DNA of 64,000 nucleotides. It comes from a virus. The number at the start of each line of letters is the position of its first letter. The first letter of the stretch is position 1. The DNA lies in IMG/VR virus record IMGVR_UViG_3300048837_000984, positions 32,001-96,000 of that record; one strand, given 5' to 3'. The position numbers and the translations under genes are program-made. Below the pieces are notes generated by a model, which searched no databases, had not been told where the DNA came from, and saw only the letters and a list, made by a program, of their open reading frames with translations. Shown piece by piece: positions 1,006 to 28,686 of this stretch.

Positions 1006-3375
1006 TTAGTTGGCCGTGTCACCAAGGTCAATGTCCATGCCCTCATCTGGGAACGGCTCGACCGACTTGCGCTTCAGCGCCAGGACAATGTCTCCGACCG
1101 CCTCGAAAGCATTGCGGAGGCTGTCTTCCAGCTCTGGCATATCTTGCTTACCGTACCGATCCTCAAAGGCTTCACCATGCCAGTAGAACAGGAACAGTAC
1201 GCGCCCGAGGCGATCCAGACCCTTCATCATGTCGCCGAGAAACCGGTCGATCATGTTTTCCTGACGGACGACACCCAACAGAGAACCCAGCATGGCAGTG
1301 TCAAACACTTCACGCTGACCACTATTTGCGGCCTGCTGGGCAATTTCCATCGAGCGTCGATCAGGTCCACGCGGGTCGTAGATGTTTCTGTCCGTGTTGG
1401 CTGCCATCAGGTCTGGGACAGGTAGCTGGAATTCCGAGTGAAGAACAGACGGATAGCCGTTCGTCGTCATGATGTCGCCACCTGAGTACGGCTCTGGGAA
1501 GCTAGGCGCTCCCGGCGTGTACTTGGCCAGGTCACCGATAGGCTCAGCGTACTTGACGCGGAATTCCGCAACCTTGGTGTACGACTTCTCGGCTGTCTTC
1601 AACAGGAGATCAGCGGCCTCTTTCCGGAAGCCGTGATCACGAACCAAGGAGATCATTGCTTCCTTGCGCGTTTGCTGGTCCTGATCGTTGACAGAAACCA
1701 TTCGACCGTTGGAGAAGATCTTAAGCGCCGAAGTCTCGGCCAGGAGAGCCATCTGGACGTCCTCAATGCGCCCAGGTCGGATTGGCTCCCGCTTCTCGTC
1801 ATCCGATTCAGGGCTGACACGGATCAGTCGGAAATTGTCTGGAACGAACAGGTCAGTCCCATGCGCTCGCATGGCCGACCCGGGCCGCTTGTTCAGGACA
1901 ATGCGGCTGTCACAGCTGCAGCACGAGTCTACTGGGTCAAGTCTTTCCCGCGGCGGCTGGCTCAGCCACTCGGGCGACCGGTCTTGGGCGTAGTCGTCAA
2001 ACCAGACGTCATAGGACTCGCTGCGGCCATTCGCTTCGTCACCTGGATACTCGTCGTGGACCTTGAACGGCGCAGACCCTTCGCCGTTGGGACTGAGGAG
2101 GATCCACTTACCGTCGTGCGGAAGGCTCTGGGCTTCCTGGCCGTTATCTTCCAGCCACTTGCGGAAGACTTCCTTGCTGCTTTGACCCTTGGTCCAGACG
2201 TTGGCTGGGTGCGTGTTCAGGAACGCACGAGAGCCGTCAGCCCGGATGACCGTGCAGAACTGATGTCGACCGGCACTACTGTACGGTGCCATAACGACCA
2301 GGCACCGCTCGAAGTTGCCTGGGCGAGTCAAGACCTCGTACAGACCGGTCTCGATCGGATTTTGCATCTCCGCAGGTTCGATGACGTTGTAGGCGTGCGT
2401 CACTTCTTCTTTGAAGCGGTCATCCTTGACTAGAACCTCTTCCCTGAGAAGCTCTTCGCGCTCCGTAGCGTCCAGCTCGTTGAGAGCTGCGCCAGACTTG
2501 TACAGGTCATAGATCCGCAGACGCGGCTTTGGTCCGGTTGGCTTGACCGGATCGTCGGCTAGGATGCTAGCCTTCTTCTCGACTTTATTTTTAAGTGCCC
2601 GATCGAGAAGTCCCGGGTAGAACTCGTCGATGGCCTTGAACACTGACGGGTACTGGCTGGCAACCTTCTCCAGGATGTACTTCACCGTCGGGGCACCGGT
2701 TTCAAGAACAAAATCAGCAAAGCCAGCGACCTTGCTGAACTTCTTGTCCGTCGCTGGATCCGTAGTGGCAAAGTAAGCCAGCGACGGGAGGATTTCCAGA
2801 GACCACTTGGCGACGGCTGATGCAAACTTGTACGGCGAACGGGCCAGCTGGTAGAAGTGTGGAGCCTGCACGCCCAGTTGGGACAGGTTCCGGTCGGTGG
2901 TCTCACCCAGGACACTGGGCTTGCGGCCAAGCAAGTAGTTGAGCCAGTTCTCCTTCAGCGGGATGAAAGCGTCCTGGTTCTTGATGTATAGCAGCTCGTG
3001 ACCCTTCAGGTCGCCGTTCAGGAAGAACACCGGAACATACAACCACTGGGAGCCGATCTTGAAGCCGAAGACACCAACCGCTTTGGTGTTGTCCTGGTTC
3101 TTCTCAATCAACTGGAAGCCGACCATGAAGTCGAGAAGCTTGGGAGCCTTGTCACGAATGTAAGCGTTAGCAAGATTAGCAAACGCTGTTTCAAACGGCA
3201 TGTCCTGGTCGCCACCGAGTTCGGCGAGCTTGACGCGTCGGTTGCCGAGGGACAGGTTACGACAAACCTGGAGCCAGTGCGAAGCGGACTTGCGCCACCA
3301 ATCAGGCGAAGTACCGGACGCACTGTTGTTCCAGTTTTTGAACCTTACCGCCTGGCTGGCTGCTTTGGTAATCAT
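1006..3375 (-). CDS. Large hypothetical phage protein (789 aa), putative virion protein with K-x-A motifs
   Basis: Long ORF; EKKAS, KFASA, KVAGF, KVAEF motifs; no family recognised. Confidence 0.8.
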   Translation of the reverse strand: MITKAASQAVRFKNWNNSASGTSPDWWRKSASHWLQVCRNLSLGNRRVKLAELGGDQDMPFETAFANLANAYIRDKAPKLLDFMVGFQLIEKNQDNTKAVGVFGFKIGSQWLYVPVFFLNGDLKGHELLYIKNQDAFIPLKENWLNYLLGRKPSVLGETTDRNLSQLGVQAPHFYQLARSPYKFASAVAKWSLEILPSLAYFATTDPATDKKFSKVAGFADFVLETGAPTVKYILEKVASQYPSVFKAIDEFYPGLLDRALKNKVEKKASILADDPVKPTGPKPRLRIYDLYKSGAALNELDATEREELLREEVLVKDDRFKEEVTHAYNVIEPAEMQNPIETGLYEVLTRPGNFERCLVVMAPYSSAGRHQFCTVIRADGSRAFLNTHPANVWTKGQSSKEVFRKWLEDNGQEAQSLPHDGKWILLSPNGEGSAPFKVHDEYPGDEANGRSESYDVWFDDYAQDRSPEWLSQPPRERLDPVDSCCSCDSRIVLNKRPGSAMRAHGTDLFVPDNFRLIRVSPESDDEKREPIRPGRIEDVQMALLAETSALKIFSNGRMVSVNDQDQQTRKEAMISLVRDHGFRKEAADLLLKTAEKSYTKVAEFRVKYAEPIGDLAKYTPGAPSFPEPYSGGDIMTTNGYPSVLHSEFQLPVPDLMAANTDRNIYDPRGPDRRSMEIAQQAANSGQREVFDTAMLGSLLGVVRQENMIDRFLGDMMKGLDRLGRVLFLFYWHGEAFEDRYGKQDMPELEDSLRNAFEAVGDIVLALKRKSVEPFPDEGMDIDLGDTAN

Positions 3376-7629: not shown

Positions 7630-8418
7630 TTACGCCTTTTTGCGCCGGAGCATCAAAGCCACTGCGGCTGCCTTGGACATAATTTTTTTGTGATCCACTG
7701 GCGTCCCAATATTGGCCGCTGCCGCCTTTTCTCCGCCTCCACCGACGTCCCCACCAGGAGGCGTCGGGAAGGCGCCCTGAATGGGGCTGATGGGCGGAAT
7801 AGCGCTCTGGACTTGAGAAGCCCCTGGAGTCACGTCAGAACCACCGGACTCAGCCGTGGCTGGGGCTCCAGTCATCGGGTCGCGGTTAGGACCGTCGAGA
7901 ATGTCCATAGGCAGCTCGATGTTCTGCATTCGCAGGAAGTGCAGGAACATCTTCTTCAGCTGGAAGACGTCCGTGGCAATGGTGTTGATGTCTGGCTTGG
8001 GAGCCTTACCGCCCTTGCCGCCTCCCTGCGGGAGAAGGCCAGCAGCAGACAACTCGTCGCGGATCGCGCTACGGATGTCTCCACCGCCTCCGCCGCCACC
8101 TGCGGCTGGGTCGGGCGGGGGAGGTGGCGGAGGCGGCATCCCACCCATCATGGCTGGATCCATTGGCGGCATGCCCATCATCGAAGGATCCATCGGTGGT
8201 GCCCCGCCAGGAGGCATCCCACCCATCATGGCCGGATCCATGGGAGGAGCTCCACCAGGAGGCATAACCATCATTGAGGGATCCATCGGTGGTGCCCCAC
8301 CGGGCGGCATCCCGCCCATGGCCGCTGGATCGGCCGGCATAGCGCCACCAGGAGCGGGCACGAATGCTCGCTTCTGTCGTGCTTTAGCCATTTTGACCAG
8401 ATCTAAGTTGAGACCCAT
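7630..8418 (-). CDS. Pro/Met/Gly-rich low-complexity protein (262 aa)
   Basis: GGMPPGGAPPMDPxMM repeats; GGAG/AAGG SD. Confidence 0.8.
   Translation of the reverse strand: MGLNLDLVKMAKARQKRAFVPAPGGAMPADPAAMGGMPPGGAPPMDPSMMVMPPGGAPPMDPAMMGGMPPGGAPPMDPSMMGMPPMDPAMMGGMPPPPPPPPDPAAGGGGGGGDIRSAIRDELSAAGLLPQGGGKGGKAPKPDINTIATDVFQLKKMFLHFLRMQNIELPMDILDGPNRDPMTGAPATAESGGSDVTPGASQVQSAIPPISPIQGAFPTPPGGDVGGGGEKAAAANIGTPVDHKKIMSKAAAVALMLRRKKA
8080..8320 (-). repeat. Coding tandem repeat (GGMPPGGAPPMDPxMM, about 4 degenerate copies) plus poly-Pro and poly-Gly
   Basis: Repeated gatccatcggtggtgcccc and ggcatcccacccatcatggc units. Confidence 0.85.
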
Positions 8419-8484
8419 CTTGCCCTTCCTTGGCTAGGAGACTCCGCTAGTGCGCTGTACGTCTGATTGTACAGCCAAGTGGCG

Positions 8485-11400
8485 TTAATGTTCCAGCACC
8501 GAAACCTGCTGGTCGATGTCGACGTTGTTGTTGTAGAACGCGCGGATGGCGTCCTTGACGGAAGCAAAAGTCTTTTGACTCTTCTGATTGTCAACCTGAG
8601 CGGTCGCAGCCCACAGACCGCCAACGTATTCCTGGCTCGGTTTGTAGGTGTCAGCCTTGAAGGTCCGGACAGAAAACAGGTTACGACTCGGCATCATCTT
8701 GGCAACCGCCTCGTCACGAGCTTCGTCAGTTGCCGGGACGTAGTAGTTGGAGGTGTTGGATAGAATGACACCGTCCGCCGCCATAAACGTTTCCGGACCC
8801 GGAACAGTCAGGTCGTAGCCGATCTCGACCTGACCTGTCTTCTCAAAGCTCTCGACTGGATCCCAAGTAATGTAGGTGTTCGCCACTACAGTACGCCAGG
8901 TATCCCATTCCGGATGGTCAACCTTACCGCCGGGAATGAACTCGACGATCTTCTCTGCGGCCAACCGAGTGATGTGGCCGGAACTCTTTGCGTCGTGAAA
9001 AGCCGAGTACATCCCGCCGTGACCCGGCAGCCAGGTCTTCCGTTCCTTATTCGGTTTCGGAATCGCCTTGCAGATGAGGTCAGCTATCGCGGTCGGAACA
9101 GGGACGACGTCGTGACGAGCAAGCGGTCCTGACATCTCTACAGGAGCCGATTCCAGCGCAGCTAGCTTGTTCGGATGGACCATGCCACGACCGCCCCACT
9201 GGTGAATGTCGTAGTTAGACGGCGACCAGACCCAGCACGGATTGCCTGCCGGGGTCTTGGAGTTCGTGATACGTCCTCGAATGCCAAGCGACAGCGCCAG
9301 TAGAGATACCTCTTGCGTCAAGCGGAGGCTAGTACTGGTTACATTAGCCATCAGTTGTGGCTTCTTCTTGGCTTTGGAAACCGAGATACTACCGTCGGTG
9401 TCCATAATGCCCGCGAACAGTCCCAGACGAAACTCCCTAGGAGCTTTCAAGAACCACACGGGCAGGTGCTTATACTGCGACTTTTGTCCGATCAACTCAG
9501 CAAGCATGCGTGCCAGGTGGGTGCTATTCCAAGTATGCCACTGGCTCTCTCCGTAGGATGTCTTCGACTCAGTTCGCAGACAAGCCGGTCTCTTGTCCGA
9601 AAACAGTCTGCCGATGATCTGGTCGACCTTGTCGACAATCGGCTGGGTAATGCCAGACAGAACGAACGCCTTGCGTTCCTCCGGTACCCAACCGTCTCCA
9701 GCAGCGCAACCGACAAGATAGCCAAGATCTTCGTTGATCGAAATGTTGTCGAACATTCCGAACTCTCTATTTGACGCGGCGTTGGCATAACCGACCGTTG
9801 CCAGACTGGTTACCGTTGGTTCTGGTCGAGATGCTTCCGGCATCTCGACAACACGCGGAACAAGGACTCGCGCCTCAACCGCTGCTGCCGGTCGAAACCT
9901 CTTGAGCTCGAGCGTCCCTGCCGCCACACCGTACACGGCTCGGGGGTCGTCGTCAGTAAAGATCTGTCGGCCAGATCGAAGATTGACGATTTCCACCGGA
10001 CAGCCGTGATGCTTAGACCAGCGTGAGACCTGAGTCCAGGTTAGCTGTCCGTCAGGTCCGTGCGACAGAACCTTGATGCCTTCAGGAACACGATACCACT
10101 CAATTCGACCAAACTGCCCCTTAGTCTCTTCGATCTGTTCCAGATGCGGGAAGTCCTCCAGGTTGAAAACATAGAGGTCGTCGTTGTTGTCCAGGGTTGG
10201 CAGACGCAGACCAGCTGAAAACGGCATTCGATGCTCCGCTAGATTGGATTGGTCGTTTACTACAATCCAGTCTATATTATTCAGGCAGGTCCTGTCAATA
10301 GAGGCAAAAACGATTCCAATCTGTTGATCTCCATCGAAGTCCATGCCGTAAGAGCCTACAATCGTGGGATTAACCTGCAACACATTGCTCTTCGTCAGCT
10401 TCGGCCAGAACGCCATCTCGCCGTAGCGGTGAAGCACTGGAGCCCGAGTTACGACCACAGGCCGAGAGTCGATCTCACTTAGCAAGGCCTTACGAGCAAT
10501 CTCGTCCCGGTTCTTGACGTACTGCAGGGCATTCACCCGGGAAACACCGTTCATAACCAGTCGGCGGATCACGAACGGGGTGTAGACAGCCCATGCTCGG
10601 TCTTCTGGCAGGCCAACCTCGTCCATGTTCAGGTCAGGGTTTGGTGCTACCACCGCTCGGCCAACCAGGTCCATGTTGGCGCCAAGAAGCTTGTACTGCA
10701 CAGTGCTATACTTCGGCGACGACCCAAAGACCTGCTGTAGCACGCCCTTGATCTTCTTCTCCTGGTTCTTGGGGGATATAGGGTCTCCAATACCAGTTAC
10801 ACCCTTGATAGCGTTGTAAAGCGTTACGCGCTCTTCGGCTGTGTCCGCAACCTGACCCTTGATGGCGTTCAGGTTCTCGTTGGCGTCCCAGGCCTCCTTG
10901 TACAGGTAGTTCACGTCCGACACCAGCTGACCGCCGGTTCCCTGCATGATGGAAACTGGGCGGAACATGGGCGGAAGAACTGGCAGCTTGTTGATCATCC
11001 ACTCGGACGGGTGGACTCCGGTCTTCTTGGCTGCCGCCAGGTAATTGAGTCGCTTAACCGCATCGCTCCGCAAGGTCTTCTTACCCGACCGAATGTCTTC
11101 CCGGGCCTGGGTAATGCCCTGGTCCAGGTTGATGGCCTTCAGTGCGTTGTAAATGGCTTCTGGGCCGGTTGTATCGCCAAGCTTCTCCTGACCGCCAAGA
11201 ACAGCTTCGAACTTCTTCTGGGTCAACCCCAGGAGTTTGCGGATGGGTTCCTCCATGACTGGAGAAGGCATCATCTCGTGGAGCTTGATATAACTCCAGC
11301 GGTTACCGCCATGTGAGCCGGTCAGGGTCGGGTCGAACAGACCGCCCTTGATTGGCTTCATGCCGTCCTTCCAGTCAACGGTTTCCACGTTCTGGAGCTC

Positions 11401-19030: not shown

Positions 19031-20164
19031 TTACTTCCCGAAGGCCATGGGCACGACGTTGGTCAGGATGCCTGCCCAGGTTCCTGCCTGTTGAAGCGAC
19101 TTTTGTGTATCTGGTTGCAAACCCGCAAGGGCTCCCAAGGTCCTGCCGACGATGGCTCCAGAAAGGTAGCCAGAGCCCATACCCAGACCGATCCGGGCCA
19201 CGTCCATTGGACTGACAAAGTTGGTACCGCCGCGAAGGGCTGAAGCCGACTCAAGCAGTCCGGTTGTAGCCGCGCGAATGGGAAGCGGCGTCTGCTGGTC
19301 CTGCCATACCGTCTGGCCAAACTGGTTCTTCGGGATGGTCGGCATGCTGTCGATAGCAAAGGCACCACCAACAGAGAAGGCAATCTTCTTAAAGACTCTC
19401 GGGACAACGACCTCGGGGAGACGATCCTGAATGCTCTGGATAAGGTCTCGAGCCGATGCCGGAGCTTTGAACTCTTCCTCCTCTTTCGGTTCTTCGTTGT
19501 TCTCTTCACCCAAATCCTGCGGTCTTACAGGCCAGTTGTCGATCCAGGCTTGCCAGCCAGGCTTGTCTGGGTTGTTGCGGTGCGAGGTTGCACCCCACCA
19601 CAACCCAGGAGCAGCGCCAAGACCGCCGCCAGCCAGGGCCGCGACCAGACTGAGTCGACCTGGCTTCAGATGCTTTTCACCGAGGAGTTTCTCGGCCAGC
19701 CAACCGCCACCGTAGCCAAGGCCAGCTCCCAGTAAGCCACCGGTCAAGGTCGCAGCCAGGGGAGTGGGACCACCCAGGTACTTGTTGATGGAACTGGGCA
19801 TGAAGTTGGCCAGAGAAGCCGCAGTCTCGGTGACAGGGTCAGCCTTCTTGACCAGGATCCACGGTTCCTCTTCCCAGGTCTCGGGAAGTTCACCAGAGGG
19901 TGCAACGACAACCTCAGTCAGGTTGCAGTTGGCCAGCTTGTCCTGCCATTCGGTGATGTTGACATCGTCGCCGTGGACCTGGATGAACAGCTCGTTACGG
20001 TCAGGGTTCCAGTGGGCTTCCTTAAGGCTGTCAGCACCGCGCAGGGCCTCACGCAACGACGGGACGAAGTCGCCCGCTGCTTTCAGGAAAGAAATCAGCT
20101 TGTCTGGAACCTGCTGCCAGTCTTCCAGCTTTCGTTGCTCAACCAGACGACTTAGAAGGTTCAT
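19031..20164 (-). CDS. Putative virion protein with glycine-zipper helices
   Basis: Start moved to MNLLSR, downstream of a hairpin; GGLLGAGLGYGGG, GMGSGYLSG; KKAD, KKIAF motifs. Confidence 0.8.
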   Translation of the reverse strand: MNLLSRLVEQRKLEDWQQVPDKLISFLKAAGDFVPSLREALRGADSLKEAHWNPDRNELFIQVHGDDVNITEWQDKLANCNLTEVVVAPSGELPETWEEEPWILVKKADPVTETAASLANFMPSSINKYLGGPTPLAATLTGGLLGAGLGYGGGWLAEKLLGEKHLKPGRLSLVAALAGGGLGAAPGLWWGATSHRNNPDKPGWQAWIDNWPVRPQDLGEENNEEPKEEEEFKAPASARDLIQSIQDRLPEVVVPRVFKKIAFSVGGAFAIDSMPTIPKNQFGQTVWQDQQTPLPIRAATTGLLESASALRGGTNFVSPMDVARIGLGMGSGYLSGAIVGRTLGALAGLQPDTQKSLQQAGTWAGILTNVVPMAFGK

Positions 20165-20173
20165 AGTCTTCTC

Positions 20174-20208
20174 GATAGCTAAAAATTGGACCGGCATACA
20201 CCGGTCCA
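20174..20208 (-). terminator. Hairpin + T-tract with tail TTTAGCTATC
   Basis: TGGACCGG/CCGGTCCA stem followed by ATTTTTAGCTATC. Confidence 0.6.
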
Positions 20209-20271
20209 GAGATCGCCAACCCCTGAACTCTGTGGGAGTTCATTGTATATTGTCTCACATTTGCCGATAAT

Positions 20272-22389
20272 TTAGTCGGACTCCTGTTCGAGACGCCAGC
20301 GTCGCTCCTCTTCCAGTTCTTTCTTCTGGCGATTATTCCACCAGCTACGCAGAGCCATTGCTGCCGCAGCGGCACCGCCGACGCCCAGAGCACCGAGACC
20401 CCACTGAGTTGGACCCCATTTGGTTACGTCGAACATAGAAGGCGCGTTCTCTTCGGCTTTTTGCTTGGCCCTTATTTCTAGCGATCGTTTGCGCTCGGCG
20501 GTCTCTTCTATCCGCGATCTATCGTTGAGTGCCTCCTGATGCTCTCTGTCCGCCCTGTCAACTTCTTGTTTAGCCAGCCTCGCCGCTTCCTGGGCGTCTG
20601 CCGCCCGCTGGGCGTCTACTTCGCGTTGGTCCCGGAAAGCCTGTTCAAACGGCCACACAGCGCTTGTCCAAGGCTCGTCCTTTGGCGGAGCTACATCTGG
20701 CCTGTACTTGTGCCACTCCGACTCCAGGGGCGGTTCTCGAAAAGTTGGTTTTGGTGCAAACGTGTTGAGATCCTCTTGGGGAATATTTTCGAATCTCAAG
20801 AAGCCATAACGGTTGGGTGGGTTAGGCAGTTCGGCTGCCCTTCCCCGCAATTTGTACCGCCCAGCCCAATCAATCTCGTAAAGCTTCGTAAATGCGTGTG
20901 GTAGATAGAGCTTCTGTAGGCCCTTGGCCAGCGGCAGCGAAGCCACCGACTTTATCGGACTGCCGTACGTTTTTTCTACCTCGGCCAGGAATCCCGGCTG
21001 CTCGCTCGATGAGTCGCCAACAACGCTCTTGACTGCGTCCAGCAGGGGTTGCTGGTTTTCTTTCCGTTTATTGCGTAAGAACGTCTCAAGTTCTTCTTGT
21101 TTCTCGTTAACATCTCTAGTCCGGTAGTCCCGCTTGTCGACGTAACGATGGCTGCTGAAAGGAATATAAGGGTTCTTCGCCCACTGGCCGAGTGGCGTTA
21201 AATTTCTAGCCCACTGACGCAGGTTTAGAAGGTTCTGCCGCACTTGTTTCGAGTGAGTCAGTCTGGTCTCAAAATCTATCTTTCCCGACAGTCGTTCCAT
21301 GAGGCTTGGCGGCAGGTCTAGCGGGGAGTCCGGCCAATACGAAGCGGAGCCGCCGCCCTGGGCGAAGTGATACTTATCCAGCTCGGGCTCCGCTTCCGCC
21401 TCGGCGGTTGGAATGCGTGGCTTACTTGGCGGTTTTCTTGACCAGAAAAAGGCCTGCTTTTCCTCTTGCTCCACTTCCTTATACATCTTTCTGAGTTGTG
21501 CCTCTGTTCTTGGTCCAGCCGGCACGGGGGTTATTTGAGCCTCCTTCTTCCGAAGAGAGACAGAGTCGGGCAGCTTCTTCTTCGGAATGTGGATCCGGAA
21601 CCTGGTCGGCCTGTGCGTAAGGCCAACCTCGCGACCTTCCTGAGAGTCGATATCGAACTCTTCCAGCTTCATTCTCAAGAGCTTCTGCAAAAGAGAATGC
21701 TTCTCTCCATAGTTGCCCCGGTCCGATTCCTTCTTGGCTCGAATGAGATCGTCAAGAACAGAGCCCTGTTTCGGCACCCTGAGTACTCCTTGTACAGGCG
21801 TGACCGCCGGATCATAAGCAGGTGTAGTTGTGTCAACAGCTCGCGTGGCGTCTCGTTGCATAGCCTTGGGGAAGTTTTTGGCGATCTCCTGTGGCACAGG
21901 TAGCTTCGCCCCAGGTGACTTCATGCGCAGAAAATAAGTGCTCCCGTCGCCATAGGTGGGCAGCGGCTCTGGCTTTGGTCCCAGGCCCAGCCGGTGAAGG
22001 ATGTGACGAAGCGGTTGCTTGGCCATATCTGTCGCGGCACTTAAAGAATAAGTCGGCCTGGCCTCAATACTCGGCTGCTTGATGAACTTCTGTAAAGACT
22101 TCCACCCGGCGGGGGTGTAGTTCATGGGGAGATCGGTACCAGTCCAACCGCCGGGCAACCGCTTCAGGATCTCGCCAGTAAACTTGTTGTTCAGGTTTAG
22201 TTTCTGAAGAGACGGGTGGATATAGCGGTAGGAAAATGAGGGCGTGCCGCTAGGTCCCCCTGGCTTCAGGTTGGCGTATCCGACCAGCTTGTCCTTCATG
22301 AACAGGCCAAAGCCGTTGCCACCTTGCATTGGGCGGACACTGAACCGCTGACGGAAACTGATGGCGTCCTTGTCCATAGCTTCACTCAC
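20272..22389 (-). CDS. Modular putative virion protein (705 aa) with C-terminal hydrophobic helix
   Basis: KKEAQ, EKQAF motifs; coiled-coil; WGLGALGVGGAAAAAMAL. Confidence 0.8.
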   Translation of the reverse strand: MSEAMDKDAISFRQRFSVRPMQGGNGFGLFMKDKLVGYANLKPGGPSGTPSFSYRYIHPSLQKLNLNNKFTGEILKRLPGGWTGTDLPMNYTPAGWKSLQKFIKQPSIEARPTYSLSAATDMAKQPLRHILHRLGLGPKPEPLPTYGDGSTYFLRMKSPGAKLPVPQEIAKNFPKAMQRDATRAVDTTTPAYDPAVTPVQGVLRVPKQGSVLDDLIRAKKESDRGNYGEKHSLLQKLLRMKLEEFDIDSQEGREVGLTHRPTRFRIHIPKKKLPDSVSLRKKEAQITPVPAGPRTEAQLRKMYKEVEQEEKQAFFWSRKPPSKPRIPTAEAEAEPELDKYHFAQGGGSASYWPDSPLDLPPSLMERLSGKIDFETRLTHSKQVRQNLLNLRQWARNLTPLGQWAKNPYIPFSSHRYVDKRDYRTRDVNEKQEELETFLRNKRKENQQPLLDAVKSVVGDSSSEQPGFLAEVEKTYGSPIKSVASLPLAKGLQKLYLPHAFTKLYEIDWAGRYKLRGRAAELPNPPNRYGFLRFENIPQEDLNTFAPKPTFREPPLESEWHKYRPDVAPPKDEPWTSAVWPFEQAFRDQREVDAQRAADAQEAARLAKQEVDRADREHQEALNDRSRIEETAERKRSLEIRAKQKAEENAPSMFDVTKWGPTQWGLGALGVGGAAAAAMALRSWWNNRQKKELEEERRWRLEQESD

Positions 22390-25300
22390 TTGGTTGGCGG
22401 CGTTGGCTGAAACTCGTTAACTCGTTTTTGTCTAGCCTGTCCGATCTCGTTCGCGTGCGGTTGCAGCGACGGCGGCAACTTCAACTGGTTGACAGGCCCA
22501 GCACCAAGCTGATCCATCGGGACGGCGCCAAAGCCCTGAGCAGCCAGCGACGTAAACGGCGTGCTCGGCTGCGCTTCCTGGAGCGTGTCCGAGATACGCT
22601 GGATCCAGTCCGTCTGGCCAGCGTGTGCCATCTGACCCTGTAGTCGGCCCTCAAAGTCAGCATCCGAGGTTGCCGCATCACCGGCCCTGAGGATATCCGG
22701 CCGGTGGGCAGAGAGCAAACCGATGGTGTTCCTGTACGGCTTAAACCGCGGGTCCGACTGGATCGTCTGGTCCAGATTCGTCAGCGAAGTGTGCGCTAGC
22801 TCGCTCAGACCGTTCGGCCCGAGCTGTCGAGCGACGTCTGGGTGAGCCTGCGCCAATTGTGCAGCCAGATTCTGGACAAGGTCCTTCCTGGATCCCGTCA
22901 GAGCGTCGTGCGGCAGTGAAGTCAGCATCTTCGACATGGACTGGATAAGGGGAGCGATTACCTGAGCCTGTTGTGGACCGACGATGCCCGCCGCAGACAG
23001 TGTGGGAATCATGCCCTGACCCAGGTAGTTCTGCATCACCGGCATAACCTCGACTTCGCGCTGTGAATTCCGCACGATATCGGTCAGGCCGTTCTTGTAG
23101 ACGTACTCCTGGTTAACCTGCTGCGATCGGAACTGGTTCCAGGCCGCTCCCGGAGATACGCCCGACTGCTGCAAAAGCGCAACCCACTGTTGCGCGTTTA
23201 CCGTACCCAGGGAAGTTCCGTCTGGCATCACTGGTTTGCCAGCCCGGATGTTGTCCGCGATCTGGGCTGCCGGAGTACCGGGCCGAATGAGGCCGGCGTC
23301 TTCCAAGGCCAATGTTGCACCCATGATGTTGGCCATGGGACTGTTCGACGCAGAAGTTCTCAGTCTCTGGTCGAGGTCGACCGCATCGTCCATCGTTAAG
23401 CCGTTGAAGCCTTGTCGTCCGGCAAACTGTCCGAAAGCACGACCAAAAGCCGCGGCGCCCGGAGCCGTTCTGGACGCAAAGAGCCTCGGCAGTCCCGCTG
23501 ACTGGGCCACGTCTCCCCCATGTCCAATCAGCGAGAACAGCCTCGGCAGCCCACCAGGGGTGGATTTGGCCAGGTTGTGCAGCTGCCGAACCTGCTGCGA
23601 CACCTGCTGCGGATCCAGATTGGACAGCTGCCCCTGGGTCAACTTCTCCAGGATGTCCATCCCTTCCCCGGCAGAGAAGGCCAGCTTGATCGGACCTTTA
23701 CCTTTGCGCAGACAAGTGCGGCAGAACAACCAACCCTTCTTGTCCTTGTAAATGTGTTCCTTCTTCAGGGCCTTGTCGCAGTGCGGGCAAATGTGATGCT
23801 CGTTGCCTTCATCGTCACAGCCCATCTCCGCTTGGGTGTGAACAGCACCCTGTTTGGGCATGTGTTCAGCCATCATATCCCTCGCAGCCGCAAATGGTTG
23901 CGACAACGAAGACAGCCGGTCTGCGGTCTGCTCTGGCGACATGGGTGTCTGGGAAGACAACAGACCTCGATCACTGGCGTTGGAATAGATGTCGCTCATC
24001 TGCGAAGCAGAAAACCCGGAAGTGTCCGCACGGTTGGCGTTTGGTCCGTACAGCCTGGAGAAGATTCTCTTGGCAGTACTCGTAGCGTCATCTGCGGATA
24101 TCCCTCGCTGACCGGTGATTGGATCTCGGAGCGTCTTGGCTGTACGGAAGACCTGGCTGCCAAGGCTCGCCGCGGACCCACGCCAGCCGTGCAGGCGGTC
24201 CCACAGCTGCGGCGCGAACATCCGAATGTATGGAGCGATGGTCGAGATGTCACCGGAGGCTGAATCAATAGCCCGCTGCATCTCTGGGTTCTTGTCCGGA
24301 TTGGAACCGGCTAACCGAGCCAGACCAGATAGCATGCGCCGATACGTACCTCGGTCTTCTGACATGGCTCCGGTGGTAGCCTGCCAGTCGCCAGTGTAGG
24401 TACGCATGTTGCTCAGGCGATCCGAAACGTTACCGGCGCCTGGGGCATACAGGAGGCCGTGTTGAGCTGCCCAGTTGTTGATGAATGGGTTGACAATCAT
24501 CTGCTGCAGGACAGGCAGGAAGCTGCCGAACTGATCGACCATGGCAGCCTTTTCCAGCGAGTCTTTCGTCCCGAATGGCGGCGCCCCAGAAGTACTCTCT
24601 CCGAAGTAGGGCTTGTCCTTATAGGTGAAGTAGAAGCTGTCACCAAGAGTCTTGGGCAGGTCGTGGTAGTTAACCGTAACTTCGTCACCAGCCTGGATGG
24701 CTTTCTTGGCTATCAAGGCGACCGTGTCGTCCGGGTTCTTGCGGATGTCTGCGTTTGGCTCATCGGAATGGTTACAGTAACGGGCTTCGTCCGTTTCGTC
24801 GTAGCAGTCTAGATGGAACTGACCTTCCTTGGGAACCAGGCAGACCGGAACAATGACGTCGTCTGGACTAAATTTTTTAGTCGCAAAGATGCCCTTGCCG
24901 TCTATCTCAGATGGTTTGATCTCGACTCCTGGGCCTTCGTCCGAAGCCTTCTTGGTATCGTTGGCCTGGAGGACGCCCTTGCGTCGGACGGCGATCGTAA
25001 TGTGGAAGTCGAACTTGTTGTTGTTTGGTCTGGCCGACAAGCCGTAGCTCTTGCGCAACTTCTCCAGTTCCGGCGAAGTCACCTCAATGAACCAGCACTT
25101 ACTGATGTTTTCCCAACCGGAAGGGTTGGTGGACCGGACCGGCCCAGTAGTGTAGCGGAACGTGTGGCCCCGCTCGGAAATCTTGGACGGACCACCAATG
25201 GCCTCAACTTCGTCCGGGCGCATGACCGTAATGTGTGCGTTGAAGGCGCCGCCATTGTAGCCGGGAGGTAGTTCAATACCGGGGACGTGTAGTGCGTCAA

Positions 25301-25559
25301 AAGCACCGCGAGCAACGGCGTTGGGGACGCTGAGAAGGCACCAACCGTCTGCGGACATGTAAAGCCGCCCGGCCATGTCGTAGCTCAGGTCGGCCGCTAC
25401 TTTCTTGTGCGCTGGCTTAACGGTAAGCTTCGCCTCGCTCGCCTTATACAGTGGATCCCAATGAATTACGAACGGCTCTTCTTGGCGAGAAACCGGCGTG
25501 TCGACGGCGATGCCGTCCAGGATGCTCTGAGACCGGTTGTTTTCAGCCATCTTTCCCAT
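22386..25559 (-). CDS. Polyprotein (1057 aa): 2H phosphoesterase + SET domain + helical region with Zn finger
   Basis: AHITV and FHITI (2H); GKGIFA...RYCNHSDEPNA...GDEVTVNY (SET); CPHC...CRTC. Confidence 0.85.
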   Translation of the reverse strand: MGKMAENNRSQSILDGIAVDTPVSRQEEPFVIHWDPLYKASEAKLTVKPAHKKVAADLSYDMAGRLYMSADGWCLLSVPNAVARGAFDALHVPGIELPPGYNGGAFNAHITVMRPDEVEAIGGPSKISERGHTFRYTTGPVRSTNPSGWENISKCWFIEVTSPELEKLRKSYGLSARPNNNKFDFHITIAVRRKGVLQANDTKKASDEGPGVEIKPSEIDGKGIFATKKFSPDDVIVPVCLVPKEGQFHLDCYDETDEARYCNHSDEPNADIRKNPDDTVALIAKKAIQAGDEVTVNYHDLPKTLGDSFYFTYKDKPYFGESTSGAPPFGTKDSLEKAAMVDQFGSFLPVLQQMIVNPFINNWAAQHGLLYAPGAGNVSDRLSNMRTYTGDWQATTGAMSEDRGTYRRMLSGLARLAGSNPDKNPEMQRAIDSASGDISTIAPYIRMFAPQLWDRLHGWRGSAASLGSQVFRTAKTLRDPITGQRGISADDATSTAKRIFSRLYGPNANRADTSGFSASQMSDIYSNASDRGLLSSQTPMSPEQTADRLSSLSQPFAAARDMMAEHMPKQGAVHTQAEMGCDDEGNEHHICPHCDKALKKEHIYKDKKGWLFCRTCLRKGKGPIKLAFSAGEGMDILEKLTQGQLSNLDPQQVSQQVRQLHNLAKSTPGGLPRLFSLIGHGGDVAQSAGLPRLFASRTAPGAAAFGRAFGQFAGRQGFNGLTMDDAVDLDQRLRTSASNSPMANIMGATLALEDAGLIRPGTPAAQIADNIRAGKPVMPDGTSLGTVNAQQWVALLQQSGVSPGAAWNQFRSQQVNQEYVYKNGLTDIVRNSQREVEVMPVMQNYLGQGMIPTLSAAGIVGPQQAQVIAPLIQSMSKMLTSLPHDALTGSRKDLVQNLAAQLAQAHPDVARQLGPNGLSELAHTSLTNLDQTIQSDPRFKPYRNTIGLLSAHRPDILRAGDAATSDADFEGRLQGQMAHAGQTDWIQRISDTLQEAQPSTPFTSLAAQGFGAVPMDQLGAGPVNQLKLPPSLQPHANEIGQARQKRVNEFQPTPPTK

Positions 25560-25571
25560 CCGTGGGTAAGT

Positions 25572-25714
25572 TGCGAGTTCCGCTGACTTTCCCGGAGCTG
25601 TTCACCGTGCCTCGCTGCCGCTCTGCGAAGACGGGCATCTGCCCAGCGTGTCGAATCATTCAACTACACCAGCCAGTTAACGGTAAACGTCGCTATAAGC
25701 CAGCGGAACTCGCA
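25572..25714 (-). ncRNA. Candidate structured RNA or 5' leader
   Basis: Perfect 14-bp closing stem TGCGAGTTCCGCTG/CAGCGGAACTCGCA enclosing small inner hairpins, intergenic. Confidence 0.4.
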
Positions 25715-25750
25715 GTGCATGTATTCTAGCAGAACCGACTTAGAAAGGAT

Positions 25751-25783
25751 GATAGCTAAAAAAGAGACCCGGTTAGGGGTCTC
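25751..25783 (-). terminator. Hairpin + T-tract with tail TTTAGCTATC
   Basis: GAGACCC/GGGTCTC stem followed by TTTTTT, after the 25790 stop. Confidence 0.7.
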
Positions 25784-25789
25784 AGATTG

Positions 25790-26533
25790 TTACTGCAGTG
25801 GCCCGCCGGACGGTCCCAGCAGGGGCTTAGCCGGCAGGCCGTCCGGCGGTGGCCCGGATGGCGGCGGAAGCCTCTTCAGCTTCCGGTCCAGCTCAAACTG
25901 AGCCAGAACCAGATCGACCACATCTGTGGTCACCGCCCGGACGACCTCCTCGGAGCGCAGGGCCGTAGTGAGGTCCTGCGCTGCCAGCTCTCTCTCACTT
26001 TCGTCAAGCGCCGAAAAGCGCTTGACGCGCTCGCGAACCGTTGCAGGGTAATCCTGCAACTTTCCGAGGGCGACGATCTTCTTGACCATCGCCTTCTCGG
26101 CGTCCTGCCGAGCCAGCCCCGTCAGTAGTTCCTCTGTCTTGCTGATCTCGAAAGACCAGCTCGACAGATTTCTAACAGTCAGGTTGTCAAACTGCCCCGG
26201 AACCTCGGGAATTTCGAGCTTCTGCCGGCGAGCCTCTAGCTCTTTGGCGAAAGCCTTCCGACCGGCGGCGTCGAGCCGCGCCACACGCTCGACATGCGGC
26301 CGGATCTCGGTCGGGCTGAATTCCTGTAGTAGCCCCTCAGCGGCGAGATCCGATGTAACCTCGTCGATAAGATCATCCGACGACGTTATTGTCGCGGCAA
26401 TCGAAGCCACGTGATGTTCGACCGTCAACGACGGTCGAATTACGATCTGGGTGCCCACGTACTGGGTACCCAGCCAGAAGCCACCAAACACCGCGACGGT
26501 GGCCACTGTCAGAATCTTTAAAAAAGTACTCAT
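25790..26533 (-). CDS. Membrane-anchored or exported protein (247 aa)
   Basis: N-terminal hydrophobic segment, GGGAG SD. Confidence 0.8.
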   Translation of the reverse strand: MSTFLKILTVATVAVFGGFWLGTQYVGTQIVIRPSLTVEHHVASIAATITSSDDLIDEVTSDLAAEGLLQEFSPTEIRPHVERVARLDAAGRKAFAKELEARRQKLEIPEVPGQFDNLTVRNLSSWSFEISKTEELLTGLARQDAEKAMVKKIVALGKLQDYPATVRERVKRFSALDESERELAAQDLTTALRSEEVVRAVTTDVVDLVLAQFELDRKLKRLPPPSGPPPDGLPAKPLLGPSGGPLQ

Positions 26534-26597
26534 CTCCCGACTCCCTCTTGTTTGGGGGGTTAAAGTGATCTCACCCTCTATTGACCCGGAAATGACC

Positions 26598-26809
26598 TTA
26601 ATTTAGGGCGGAAAGTTGGCCCAGAAGTGACTGCACCGCAAATGCGCTGAAGACCAAAGACACAGCCGAGCGCTCTCTCGATATCGCCGCCACATACCTC
26701 GGACAGAGGTGGTGGCGCCAAAGCGACGATTCAACCAAGCCCGGTGCAGATAGTAATACTCGGTGTCGACGCCGTTGGTAGGCCAACGTCTTACAATCGC
26801 GGCCGGCAT
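26598..26809 (-). CDS. Hypothetical protein (68 aa)
   Basis: Abuts upstream stop (TAAATG). Confidence 0.5.
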
Positions 26810-27166
26810 TCATTTATCCTCAACGAAACCGAACTTGGACATAAACAGCCGCAATTCCGGAGACAGGTCGCAAATCAGGTCTAGTAGCGCGAAAGGAGGC
26901 AGTATCCGCTCGGCCTTCTGTTGGGCAGATAGCTGCGGATCGCCAGCAACGGCTAACTCGGCAAGGACTAGCTTGCCAACCTCAGAGTCGTAAGGATATC
27001 GCCAGACAAAGCAATCACCGCTCTGCGTTGGCTGGAAGTCTACAACGATGTGGTTGGTCGCTTTCTCGTCTTGGACAAATAAATAGGTCGCGTCTACGTG
27101 AGAAGTAGACAGTCTTGCTGGGGCGATACTCCGCCACCGCTGTAAATGCTTAGACTGGATCGGCAC
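26810..27166 (-). CDS. Hypothetical protein (118 aa)
   Basis: Natural composition, in tandem. Confidence 0.65.
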   Translation of the reverse strand: MPIQSKHLQRWRSIAPARLSTSHVDATYLFVQDEKATNHIVVDFQPTQSGDCFVWRYPYDSEVGKLVLAELAVAGDPQLSAQQKAERILPPFALLDLICDLSPELRLFMSKFGFVEDK

Positions 27167-27210
27167 CAGAATCCTCCGAGAACTTGGGGCCAGACTTTTC
27201 TGTTCTCACT

Positions 27211-27537
27211 TCAAGTCCGCCACTGGTATTTCTTCTGCAGTTCCTCGGCCTTGTCAGGGTCAGCGATTGTTGCTCTGCGGGCCTGCAACTCTTCGACCGT
27301 CCCACCCAACTGCTCCCAGATAAAGTTGAGGCAGCAGATGACAGCGTCGCTGGTGAGGCTACAGAAGACACAGTCATCAATCAAGCCGAGAAGCGGATCC
27401 TTGACTTCGTCGTTAGCTTTACCAAGAAACTCTCTGAGACGATCCTTTACCTGGGGGTCAACTTCCCGGTCGTTCCCACCGCAGATCAGATTGAACAGTT
27501 GGTCACGAGATTCAATGGAGAAAACCTCATCGCTCAT
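27211..27537 (-). CDS. Hypothetical protein (108 aa), first ordinary gene downstream of the mini-gene array
   Basis: ATGA overlap with the last array member; acidic, unlike array peptides. Confidence 0.75.
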   Translation of the reverse strand: MSDEVFSIESRDQLFNLICGGNDREVDPQVKDRLREFLGKANDEVKDPLLGLIDDCVFCSLTSDAVICCLNFIWEQLGGTVEELQARRATIADPDKAEELQKKYQWRT

Positions 27538-27767
27538 CTGTAGTACCTCTGAAGTAACCTGGAGCCACGAGGACGACCAGCAAGGATAGGCCCCTGGCAG
27601 AAAAGGTAGCCATGTCGAAGCCAGGCATGCGAGTTTCCCATTTGTCTTGCCCGGTTAAGATAGGCCGCGAGGCCCGCAGAATACCGTCTATAGACAAAAA
27701 CAGAACCGTTGCGGAGTAAGTGTCGATAATGTCCTACGCCATGAAGAAGTGCAGCTACGCACAGCAT
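27534..27767 (-). CDS. AxL mini-protein 65
   Basis: MLCVAALL; GAGG SD. Confidence 0.6.
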   Translation of the reverse strand: MLCVAALLHGVGHYRHLLRNGSVFVYRRYSAGLAAYLNRARQMGNSHAWLRHGYLFCQGPILAGRPRGSRLLQRYYR

Positions 27768-27771
27768 TGAA

Positions 27772-27990
27772 TCAACCTCGCTGATGTAGGTGAGACCGAC
27801 TACGCCAGAGTAGCCGTGCTTCTTGCCCGATAAGCTGGTGCGGCGACCGGATCTTGCAGCTCGACAGACGGGAAAGAGTAGCGCGCCGATGCCACGGCCA
27901 TGCGCCACCTCCAGAAGCTAGACAGGCAGCAGCCAGGCAGAAAACAAATGCTGTTGGCTCACCGTGATAAAGGTTTGCGGCATAGCTCAA
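27772..27990 (-). CDS. AxL mini-protein 64
   Basis: MSYAANL; overlap. Confidence 0.65.
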   Translation of the reverse strand: MSYAANLYHGEPTAFVFCLAAACLASGGGAWPWHRRATLSRLSSCKIRSPHQLIGQEARLLWRSRSHLHQRG

Positions 27991-28241
27991 TCTTCTTTCC
28001 TTCCTGGTGAAAGCCAGGCCTGAGAAAGGCCTTGGTGCGTGGCGACACGATTGTACCCATGACCTTGGCGGAGTCCACTATCCGAAGCAATGAACCGCAA
28101 ACCCGAAAACAGTCGCAAGTTAGCTGCGCATTGCAGCACCTGAATTCCGTAGACCTCACGCGGTAAGACTGTGTTGGCATGCCAGCGCGACCAGCCGTAC
28201 CTAAAGTTGGTATAACTTGTAAGTGCCGCTCGACAGTTCAA
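27987..28241 (-). CDS. AxL mini-protein 63
   Basis: MNCRAAL (TTG); AGGAG SD; ends AWLSPGRKED. Confidence 0.65.
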   Translation of the reverse strand: MNCRAALTSYTNFRYGWSRWHANTVLPREVYGIQVLQCAANLRLFSGLRFIASDSGLRQGHGYNRVATHQGLSQAWLSPGRKED

Positions 28242-28477
28242 TTCCATCTCCTTTGACAAAGCTTCGCGCAGTCACACGACATGGCCGCGGACGCATACAC
28301 TGAGGACCTTTTGCCAGTCCGAAGCCAGCAACACTGGTCGTAAGTCTTGTCGCACGCAGGCGTGAAAAAGGCCTGCGATAGCCAGCCCCACCACGAACGG
28401 GACGGCAGTAGGCGGGCTGACGTAGACTTGAAATATACTTCGGATTGATGTCGACACAGGGACGCCCGACTGAGCAT
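28238..28477 (-). CDS. AxL mini-protein 62
   Basis: MLSRASL; overlap. Confidence 0.65.
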   Translation of the reverse strand: MLSRASLCRHQSEVYFKSTSARLLPSRSWWGWLSQAFFTPACDKTYDQCCWLRTGKRSSVYASAAMSCDCAKLCQRRWN

Positions 28478-28686
28478 TATCTTTCTCCCGGACTAAGACC
28501 AGCTCGCCCGGTAGGACCGAAAGCCTGACTAAAGGCGTTCGCGTCTTCGCCCGCTCCGAGCCACCCGTAGGGGTAAAAGTTGCCGACCATCGCTCTGATA
28601 AGGAAATAAGGAAGACCATTCCGAATTGTCGCGAAAGAGAACCAGTTGTAGCCGGGACAGTGGTGCAATATCGCACTCCAGCTCAT
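28477..28686 (-). CDS. AxL mini-protein 61
   Basis: MSWSAIL; ends AGLSPGER. Confidence 0.65.
   Translation of the reverse strand: MSWSAILHHCPGYNWFSFATIRNGLPYFLIRAMVGNFYPYGWLGAGEDANAFSQAFGPTGRAGLSPGER

Follow-up and report, generated by a model that had tools for sequence, protein, structure and literature searches.

A predicted polyvalent protein of an uncultured phage joins a 2H phosphoesterase and a minimal SET domain to an all-alpha carrier family

Polyvalent proteins of phages bring several unrelated effector domains together in one polypeptide and, as Iyer et al. (2017, PMC5512222; see also PMC7824862) argue, probably travel in the capsid and enter the host by injection. For the 2H domains found among them, Iyer et al. 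proposed a role as RNases or as degraders of 2'-5' or cyclic nucleotide signals (PMC5512222). Alpha-helical virion cargo proteins ejected in advance of the DNA have also been described (PMC10172136), and one ejection protein, Gp15 of ICP3, also blocks CBASS (bioRxiv 2025.07.23.666291). Here we analyze a gene for a 1,057-residue protein with an ATG start, located at positions 22386-25559 on the minus strand of a 64,000-nt stretch of viral DNA (hereafter, the window). The window corresponds to positions 32001-96000 of IMG/VR record IMGVR_UViG_3300048837_000984, a complete virus of 193,694 bp with direct terminal repeats. The protein, referred to below as the target, combines a 2H phosphoesterase and a SET domain with a large all-alpha carrier. 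Judged from its sequence it is very probably a polyvalent protein, and it represents a genuinely new architecture inside that known class.

Like the described polyvalent proteins (PMC5512222), the target carries several unrelated effectors that are reshuffled among homologues, its 2H domain belongs to the same Pfam family, and it is predicted to travel with the DNA. Unlike them, it is anchored by a 718-residue all-alpha tail-module family and not by a MuF, portal or metallopeptidase domain, and its processing would use a short K-x-A motif instead of a built-in peptidase. The full text of PMC5512222 contains zero mentions of SET domains, and a full-text literature search pairing "SET domain" with "polyvalent protein" returned a single paper, on an unrelated subject. 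The layout of the target, with boundaries drawn from profile matches and AlphaFold2 (AF2) models and their per-residue confidence (pLDDT), is as follows (window positions):

22386..25559, minus strand: whole open reading frame (ORF), 1,057 residues, comprising leader, 2H domain, SET domain and all-alpha carrier
25392..25559, minus strand: N-terminal leader, residues 1-56, ending K53-V-A55-A-D; disordered (AF2 pLDDT ~32)
24963..25391, minus strand: 2H-SAK phosphoesterase domain, residues 57-199; Pfam PF22547; AF2 pLDDT >90
25224-25238 and 24993-25007, minus strand: the two HxT motifs, H109-I-T and H186-I-T
24915..24962, minus strand: linker 1, residues 200-215, with T-K-K-A-S at 24945-24956; low pLDDT
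24639..24914, minus strand: minimal SET domain, residues 216-307; Pfam PF00856; phrog_34170 spans 212-301
24531..24638, minus strand: linker 2, residues 308-343, ending L-E-K-A-A (24543-24554) just before the first core helix of the AF2 model
23844..24530, minus strand: N-lobe of the carrier core, residues 344-572, all-alpha, AF2 pLDDT 83-97; the family's first conserved stretch
23673..23843, minus strand: variable insert, residues 573-629, a CPHC...CRTC zinc-ribbon-like hairpin pair and then G-P-I-K-L-A; four short strands, pLDDT 49-69
23712-23789, minus strand: the zinc-ribbon insert itself, residues 591-616
22389..23672, minus strand: C-lobe of the carrier core, residues 630-1057, all-alpha, AF2 pLDDT mostly >90; the family's second conserved stretch

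The ORF and every motif listed in an earlier annotation made from the sequence (hereafter, the original prediction) lie where they had been placed: AHITV at residues 108-112, FHITI at 185-189, GKGIFA at 221-226, RYCNHSDEPNA at 260-270, GDEVTVNY at 291-298, CPHC at 591-594, CRTC at 613-616, and the K-x-A sites KKVA, TKKA, EKAA and IKLA at 52-55, 202-205, 336-339 and 624-627. The same annotation spoke of a polyprotein ending in a zinc-finger/helical region. The modular domains and their linkers are real, whereas "polyprotein" is an interpretation rather than an observation. The CPHC...CRTC insert is present too, but the C-terminal two thirds of the chain form a compact, confidently folded family module of 718 residues. 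Scanning the target against PHROGs returned two families, both of unknown function, covering the 2H and SET regions, and nothing else.

The 2H domain is recognized by the Pfam 2H-SAK profile PF22547 with 45.8 bits (cut-off 27, E-value 9e-12, residues 101-194). Both HxT motifs are intact, and they are conserved across all 2H homologues bar one (P0004). An AF2 model of the N-terminal region, built on an alignment of 19 sequences, gives residues 57-199 a pLDDT above 90 and leaves the leader (1-56) and the linkers disordered. When model residues 70-200 were searched with Foldseek and VIA-align, nearly all matches were 2H enzymes, with middling Z scores of 4.0-7.2. The best was Acb1 of phage FBB1 (Z 7.2, root-mean-square deviation 3.6, 109 aligned residues), followed by the LigT-like protein TT0787 of Thermus (1iuh, 6.8), Deinococcus CPDase (6.7), human Usb1 (6.5), the phosphodiesterase of Burkholderia phage BCSR5 (6.2), the penguinpox cGAMP phosphodiesterase (6.1) and MHV ns2 (6.0). 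Rows less than one Z unit apart were counted as tied; these ties mean that the comparison confirms the fold and does not discriminate between clades or, hence, between substrates.

The proposal of a 2H phosphoesterase thus holds on all three counts, that is, a profile score above the curated cut-off, two intact HxT motifs and a 2H fold, and the structural check suggested for each domain returns, for this part, almost solely 2H enzymes. The likeness to Acb1 drawn by the original prediction fares less well. Acb1 (PDB 7T26/7T27) shares the compact ~140-residue 2H fold and the two HxT motifs and gives the top Z score, but the match is not specific, with the LigT-like, CPDase and Usb1 rows tied at 6.5-6.8. 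Furthermore, a phmmer search of PDB sequences found no 2H chain at E<=1, thus no sequence match to Acb1, which is a free-standing protein and not a domain of a giant one.

In homologue P0004, encoded on a 6.9-kb metagenome contig, Tyr replaces His in both HxT motifs. The 2H domain of this protein is probably catalytically dead though retained.

The SET domain reaches 41.6 bits with Pfam PF00856, against a cut-off of 22.4 (E 1.8e-10). GKGIFA, RYCNHSDEPN and GDEVTVNY align residue for residue with the catalytic motifs of ASH1L and SETD8 (GxG, NH(S/C)xxPN and ELxxxY), the catalytic Tyr is intact, and the motifs are kept in homologues P0002, P0005 and P0007. By profile and motifs, the SET domain that had been proposed is borne out; from its motifs, it is a predicted lysine methyltransferase of the minimal type. 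A viral counterpart, vSET, is carried in the virion of PBCV-1. As in vSET (PDB 1N3J), the domain is a minimal SET of about 100 residues without pre-SET and post-SET zinc clusters, and it is encoded by a large DNA virus; the sequence match between the two is marginal (E 0.62). The comparison also stops at the substrate: the host here is a bacterium, which has no histones, so that the target of the SET enzyme must be another protein, unlike that of vSET.

Domain shuffling is directly visible among 20 homologues retrieved with a word index. Three of them share the C-terminal two thirds of the target: P0002 consists of SET, core and a C-terminal extension, P0003 of the core alone, and P0004 of 2H and core. 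The rest share 2H or 2H plus SET alone, and join 2H-SAK with SNF2 helicase, NUDIX, InPase (PF18823), P-loop kinase, SET and other domains, on contigs of up to 230 kb. At least two unrelated effector domains are hence found in one phage polypeptide, and the domains are recombined among homologues.

The carrier was characterized separately. With residues 340-1057 as query, phmmer found 737 representative clusters at E<=1e-3, 129 of them at E<=1e-30. Members of this family measure 430-2,082 residues, with the core mostly near the N-terminus. No Pfam or PHROG family matched the carrier, Pfam scans of 33 long family members revealed almost no extra domains in common, and a profile search for named members yielded "hypothetical protein" entries only. 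An AF2 model built on 87 sequences is compact, two-lobed and all-alpha (pLDDT 90.6, predicted template modelling score (pTM) 0.85); its low-confidence insert is the CPHC...CRTC region.

A CPHC...HxxC arrangement occurs in P0002 and P0003 and is absent from P0004, while a K-x-A after the insert can be seen by eye in all four proteins, including the target. The form of the insert common to the target, P0002 and P0003 is CPHC ... W-x-(F/H)-x-x-C ... KG-x-GP. A similar CPHC...W.H..C.DKGPF unit was noticed by eye in other 2H-SAK/InPase polyvalent proteins (P0011, P0012 and P0018 in alignment A4). The zinc-ribbon insert may be a small mobile module.

The genomic setting of the carrier family is directly established in related phages. 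In four independent related contigs (L012, L013/L014, L017 and L018), the family gene occupies a fixed slot of a collinear module. It is preceded by genes of roughly 210, 920 to 1030, 160 to 185, 870 to 890, 365 to 390 and 134 to 165 codons; the family gene itself (788-1,903 residues) lies between a small chaperone-like gene and baseplate genes; and it is followed by genes of roughly 150 to 210, 255 to 265, 550 to 595, 240 to 260, two of about 150, and 540 to 570 codons. The last of these encodes a baseplate wedge subunit (phrog_6), which was the sole match in PHROG scans of the neighbours of P0031, a typical family member. BLASTP equates it with the target phage's own tail module, found at 1-12 kb and 183-194 kb of the genome with 31-49% identity per gene. 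The exception is the family gene: its single homologue in the target genome is the target protein, about 52 kb away. The vacated slot contains the following ORF (genome positions):

1414-2052, minus strand, outside the window: proline/arginine/glutamine-rich ORF of 212 residues

A 37-position hidden Markov model of the C-terminal motif of the family (approximately I-x-G-T-L-x-L-x-x-D-G-x-A) found this ORF as its only match in the proteome (E 1.2e-6), the motif sitting in its last ~30 residues. The motif was sought in the target and in its three close relatives (P0002, P0003 and P0004), and is absent from all. The simplest reading of these sequences is the splitting of an ancestral gene in the tail module, of which the tail end would have remained in place and the helical core would have moved and become fused to 2H and SET. 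Acquisition of a paralogue from a P0002/P0003-like phage is the alternative.

The original prediction had also placed K-x-A sites at the domain borders. Over the whole protein, K-x-A is at chance level (7 observed versus 5.3 expected, p=0.27). Its distribution is uneven: six of the seven sites fall in the 165 residues that AF2 assigns to disordered or linker segments (1-56, 200-215, 308-343 and 573-629), a count reached in 0.4% of trials when the linker residues were shuffled (P=0.004), and the folded parts contain 1 site versus 3.0 expected. A K-x-A site precedes the 2H domain by no more than 16 residues in 17 of the 18 sequences that carry this domain (background for stretches of this kind, 0.11), the eighteenth having K-Q-G; on the far side of the domain, K-x-[AS] is seen in 13 of the 19 aligned rows, which include P0002, a protein lacking 2H. 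P0002 begins eight residues before a T-K-V-A-A-D that matches the 2H/SET linker of the target. Ahead of the core, the motif is kept in P0002 (VKQA) and in P0003 (VKAA, within R-V-K-A-A), the latter having neither enzyme. Thus K-x-A persists ahead of whichever domain comes first, in which it resembles an N-terminal propeptide site.

The motif is also concentrated in one part of the genome. In the genes at 21.8-57.6 kb, the head-gene block, it is 1.49-fold over the number expected from composition (98 versus 65.6), as against 1.01 elsewhere; nine control patterns gave 0.84 to 1.25. Besides a protein of 789 residues (12 sites versus 4.2 expected), the densest products are (genome positions):

170277-171473, plus strand: 398-residue protein beside the putative portal, 13 K-x-A versus 2.7 expected
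23929-25173: 414-residue scaffold-like protein, 10 K-x-A versus 2.4 expected
25233-28589, minus strand, outside the window: candidate maturation protease of 1,118 residues with two inteins, 16 K-x-A versus 5.5 expected

The 398- and 414-residue proteins would look like scaffold or inner-body proteins that are chopped during head maturation. In the seven proteins with the strongest enrichment, the 68 sites have F or L at position -2, a 4.6-fold excess of E at -1 and a 4.3-fold excess of S behind the Ala, which extends the consensus to [F/L]-E-K-x-A-S. Target sites 203 (K-K-A-S) and 337 (E-K-A-A) fit this consensus. For comparison, the prohead-protease motif of T4 is L/I-x-E and that of phiKZ-like phages is A/S/G-x-E. 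As in the processed head proteins of T4 and of phiKZ-like giant phages (among them SPN3US, the subject of PMC5694885 and PMC10052503), a short motif of three residues is crowded into scaffold-like proteins and lies near the N-termini of many head-block proteins; as in the phiKZ-like giants, the cargo gene has a multisubunit phage RNA polymerase for a neighbour. Unlike in those phages, the motif here is K-x-A (E-K-x-A-S), the protease is not recognizable as S77, and cleavage is predicted from the placement of the motif.

The candidate protease carries Hint/intein and LAGLIDADG domains and a K-x-A-rich tail. Metagenomes contain at least 291 homologues that lack inteins and measure about 485 residues, none with a Pfam family. 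In the alignment of this family, His, Ser, Asp and Cys columns are invariant, and K246-x-A248 is nearly so directly after the conserved N-terminal domain. The assignment of the 1,118-residue ORF as a protease stays a lead.

Altogether, these data lead us to favor, by a modest degree, the view that the target is a packaged, K-x-A-processed and injected multi-effector protein of the polyvalent type. The carrier would build the protein into the virion, and the phage maturation protease would trim or cut it at the K-x-A linker sites. The protein would then enter the cell together with the DNA; there, the 2H enzyme would destroy a 2',3'-cyclic, 2'-5' or cyclic-oligonucleotide phosphodiester, be it in an immune signal or an RNA end, and the SET enzyme would methylate a host protein. 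Delivery of the target with the virion appears slightly the better bet. The chances that one or more K-x-A sites are cut seem to us evenly balanced. We hold as rather doubtful a more ambitious version, whereby a clade-wide K-x-A (E-K-x-A-S) maturation code dissects chimeric cargo into separately injected enzymes, one of them a SET lysine methyltransferase that would be the first to be delivered by a phage and to act on a protein of bacteria, with the carrier captured by splitting and relocating a tail-module gene. Somewhat more doubtful still is the idea that the 2H domain is aimed specifically at cyclic-oligonucleotide immune signals.

The packaged polyprotein put forward by the original prediction accordingly keeps its enzyme domains, its modularity, its polyvalent class and its conserved K-x-A borders; packaging, cleavage, delivery (by injection) and the substrates are what we infer. 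Likewise, the K-x-A borders themselves stand by their placement in linkers, their conservation and the head-block enrichment, but not by overall count. Several observations weigh against the packaged, injected protein. The phage is uncultured, and presence of the target in its virion would have to be deduced. In this genome the gene lies outside the tail module, in the head/RNA polymerase block. Foldseek and wide VIA-align searches of the carrier against PDB and BFVD gave nothing significant and, with no structural match, the virion role of the carrier rests on synteny in relatives. The AF2 model of the SET region is poor (pLDDT 30-70, from a shallow alignment), and structural matches to this poorly modelled domain cover its C-terminal half alone, at Z 3.5-4.9. 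The linkers are K-rich (13% K), which inflates the number of K motifs in them, a bias that the shuffle test allowed for. Conservation of K-x-A among homologues could reflect another function, for instance that of a targeting or docking motif. Finally, no prohead protease was recognized in the genome with the Pfam S77, S78, S78_2 and ClpP profiles; what points to the 1,118-residue candidate is a language-model (Atlas) lead to Peptidase_S78/S77 clusters (0.84), and neither hhalign of its family against HK97 gp4 nor a profile search of PDB sequences gave support.

Three other explanations were considered. The target might be a tape-measure-like protein of the tail lumen that bears enzymes; having kept the ancestral tail role, it would be ejected first and never be cut by the head protease, and K-x-A would serve as a linker or for docking. 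Tape measures that bear enzymes are well known, the family slot lies between the chaperone-like gene and the baseplate genes in the four related contigs, and the target genome has a single family member. Moreover, the genome's sole signal of the tape-measure profile PF10145 falls inside the core, albeit weak and below threshold (8.8 bits versus a cut-off of 33.2, E 0.12), and further weak leads to tape-measure proteins came from BFVD (tape-measure and internal-virion proteins, TM 0.1-0.28) and from Atlas (0.78-0.81, some of them tape-measure clusters); the VIA-align rows were helical fragments at Z<=6.8. This explanation is nevertheless unlikely in our view. The predicted core is compact and globular (pTM 0.85), not a rod, in a monomer prediction that would also be compatible with an unfolded state in the tail. 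Family members vary from 788 to 1,903 residues within otherwise collinear modules, the target is devoid of the C-terminal motif of the family, which stayed in the tail slot, and its gene now lies in the K-x-A-rich head block. The ejection and cargo proteins of podoviruses and crassviruses (T7 gp15/gp16; PhicrAss001 gp45-gp50, PMC10172136) are comparable in being large, folded and mostly alpha-helical; unlike in these, the tail module here is of the baseplate type, and the fold match is not significant (T7 core protein, E 0.044, TM 0.09).

Equally unlikely, we think, is a non-packaged enzyme that would act as a single cytoplasmic chain during infection, with the helical module as a scaffold or regulatory domain. 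Its appeal is that the gene and a downstream partner of 705 codons (described below) form a unit of their own between two terminator-like hairpins, that the neighbours are proteins of unknown function and RNA polymerase genes rather than recognizable head proteins, that the overall K-x-A count is at chance, and that packaging of the target is deduced indirectly. It is countered by the tail-module position that the carrier family holds in relatives, by the placement and conservation of K-x-A, and by the class precedent, which is one of injected proteins (PMC5512222, PMC7824862). Quite improbable is a third scenario, in which the 2H enzyme heals tRNAs that host anticodon nucleases have cut, acting on their 2',3'-cyclic phosphate ends. 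The best Pfam family, 2H-SAK, takes its name from the "Swiss Army Knife" proteins of RNA repair, some homologues also contain NUDIX and P-loop kinase domains, and LigT-like proteins and CPDase are structurally as close as Acb1. However, a 2H enzyme engaged in RNA repair would need an RNA ligase or RtcB, unless those of the host were used, and a search for RNA ligase (PF09414) and RtcB found neither in the 194-kb genome. In polyvalent proteins, moreover, 2H domains are never found together with RNA ligases (PMC5512222), and fusion to a SET domain would be left unexplained. The packaged and injected multi-effector protein thus stays the reading that we prefer.

The immediate surroundings of the target gene contain the following features (window positions):

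25764..25783, minus strand: terminator-like hairpin upstream of the target gene
20272..22389, minus strand: downstream gene of 705 codons, translationally coupled to the target through a GTGA overlap
21556-21789, minus strand: module of ~75 residues in the 705-residue ORF (residues 201-278), internal here
20187-20208, minus strand: twin terminator-like hairpin closing the two-gene unit

On the minus strand, both hairpins (window 25700-25790 and 20130-20215) are followed by an identical TTTTTAGCTATC ... C(C/T)TTCTAAGTCG. In the window, TTTTTAGCT occurs solely at those two hairpin places. The RNA polymerase that the phage itself encodes may use this repeated motif as a promoter or regulatory site.

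Downstream of the pair, the same strand carries genes of 388, 151, 107, 124 and 442 codons with no assigned function, then a 2,510-residue fusion of RNA polymerase beta with the N-terminal half of beta', which carries inteins, and then the C-terminal half of beta' (1,312 residues). The candidate protease, the scaffold-like protein and the major capsid protein are found beyond the RNA polymerase genes. In a 213-kb relative (L010), the syntenic position, likewise upstream of the beta-beta' fusion gene, encodes P0005, a polyvalent protein of 1,327 residues with 2H-SAK, SET, InPase and SNF2 domains, and homologues of the 388-, 107-, 124- and 442-codon genes are present as well. The C-terminal 79 residues of P0005 match residues 201-278 of the 705-residue neighbour of the target. 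The ~75-residue module so defined ends in (G)-[IV]-T-H-K-P-T-x-F-[RK]-x-H, and forms the extreme C-terminus of P0005, P0006, P0007 and the carrier-family member P0023. These proteins may share it as a means of docking or targeting. Two further candidates were dismissed by comparison: the 1,046-residue gene adjoining that of P0005, as the carrier of that phage, and the gene downstream of that for P0002, as a relative of the 705-residue neighbour.

As regards the lineage, the closest cultured match of the large terminase (positions 7941-9800 of locus L007 of this genome) is that of Salmonella phage Arash (181 kb, an orphan myovirus; 27% identity), followed by those of three 187-kb Vibrio phages; all of these show only 27-28% identity. 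A tblastn search of 50,697 cultured-phage records with the whole target protein and with P0031 gave no match, and a search of IMG/VR for related loci with the target alignment (A1) gave zero confirmed relatives. By its terminase sequence, the lineage is without a close cultured representative, so that no relative's proteome can be borrowed.

The carrier itself is a large, confidently folded family of ~700 residues with no known fold and 737 clusters, which is now singled out. If the reading that we prefer is correct, a SET methyltransferase would be an injected phage effector, the bacterial targets of which are almost unexplored, and a 2H enzyme would be delivered before phage gene expression, an ideal timing to destroy cyclic-nucleotide alarm signals. 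The K-x-A code would then let virion cargo and processing sites be predicted from metagenomes alone. All three would offer testable handles on how large uncultured phages disarm their hosts at entry.

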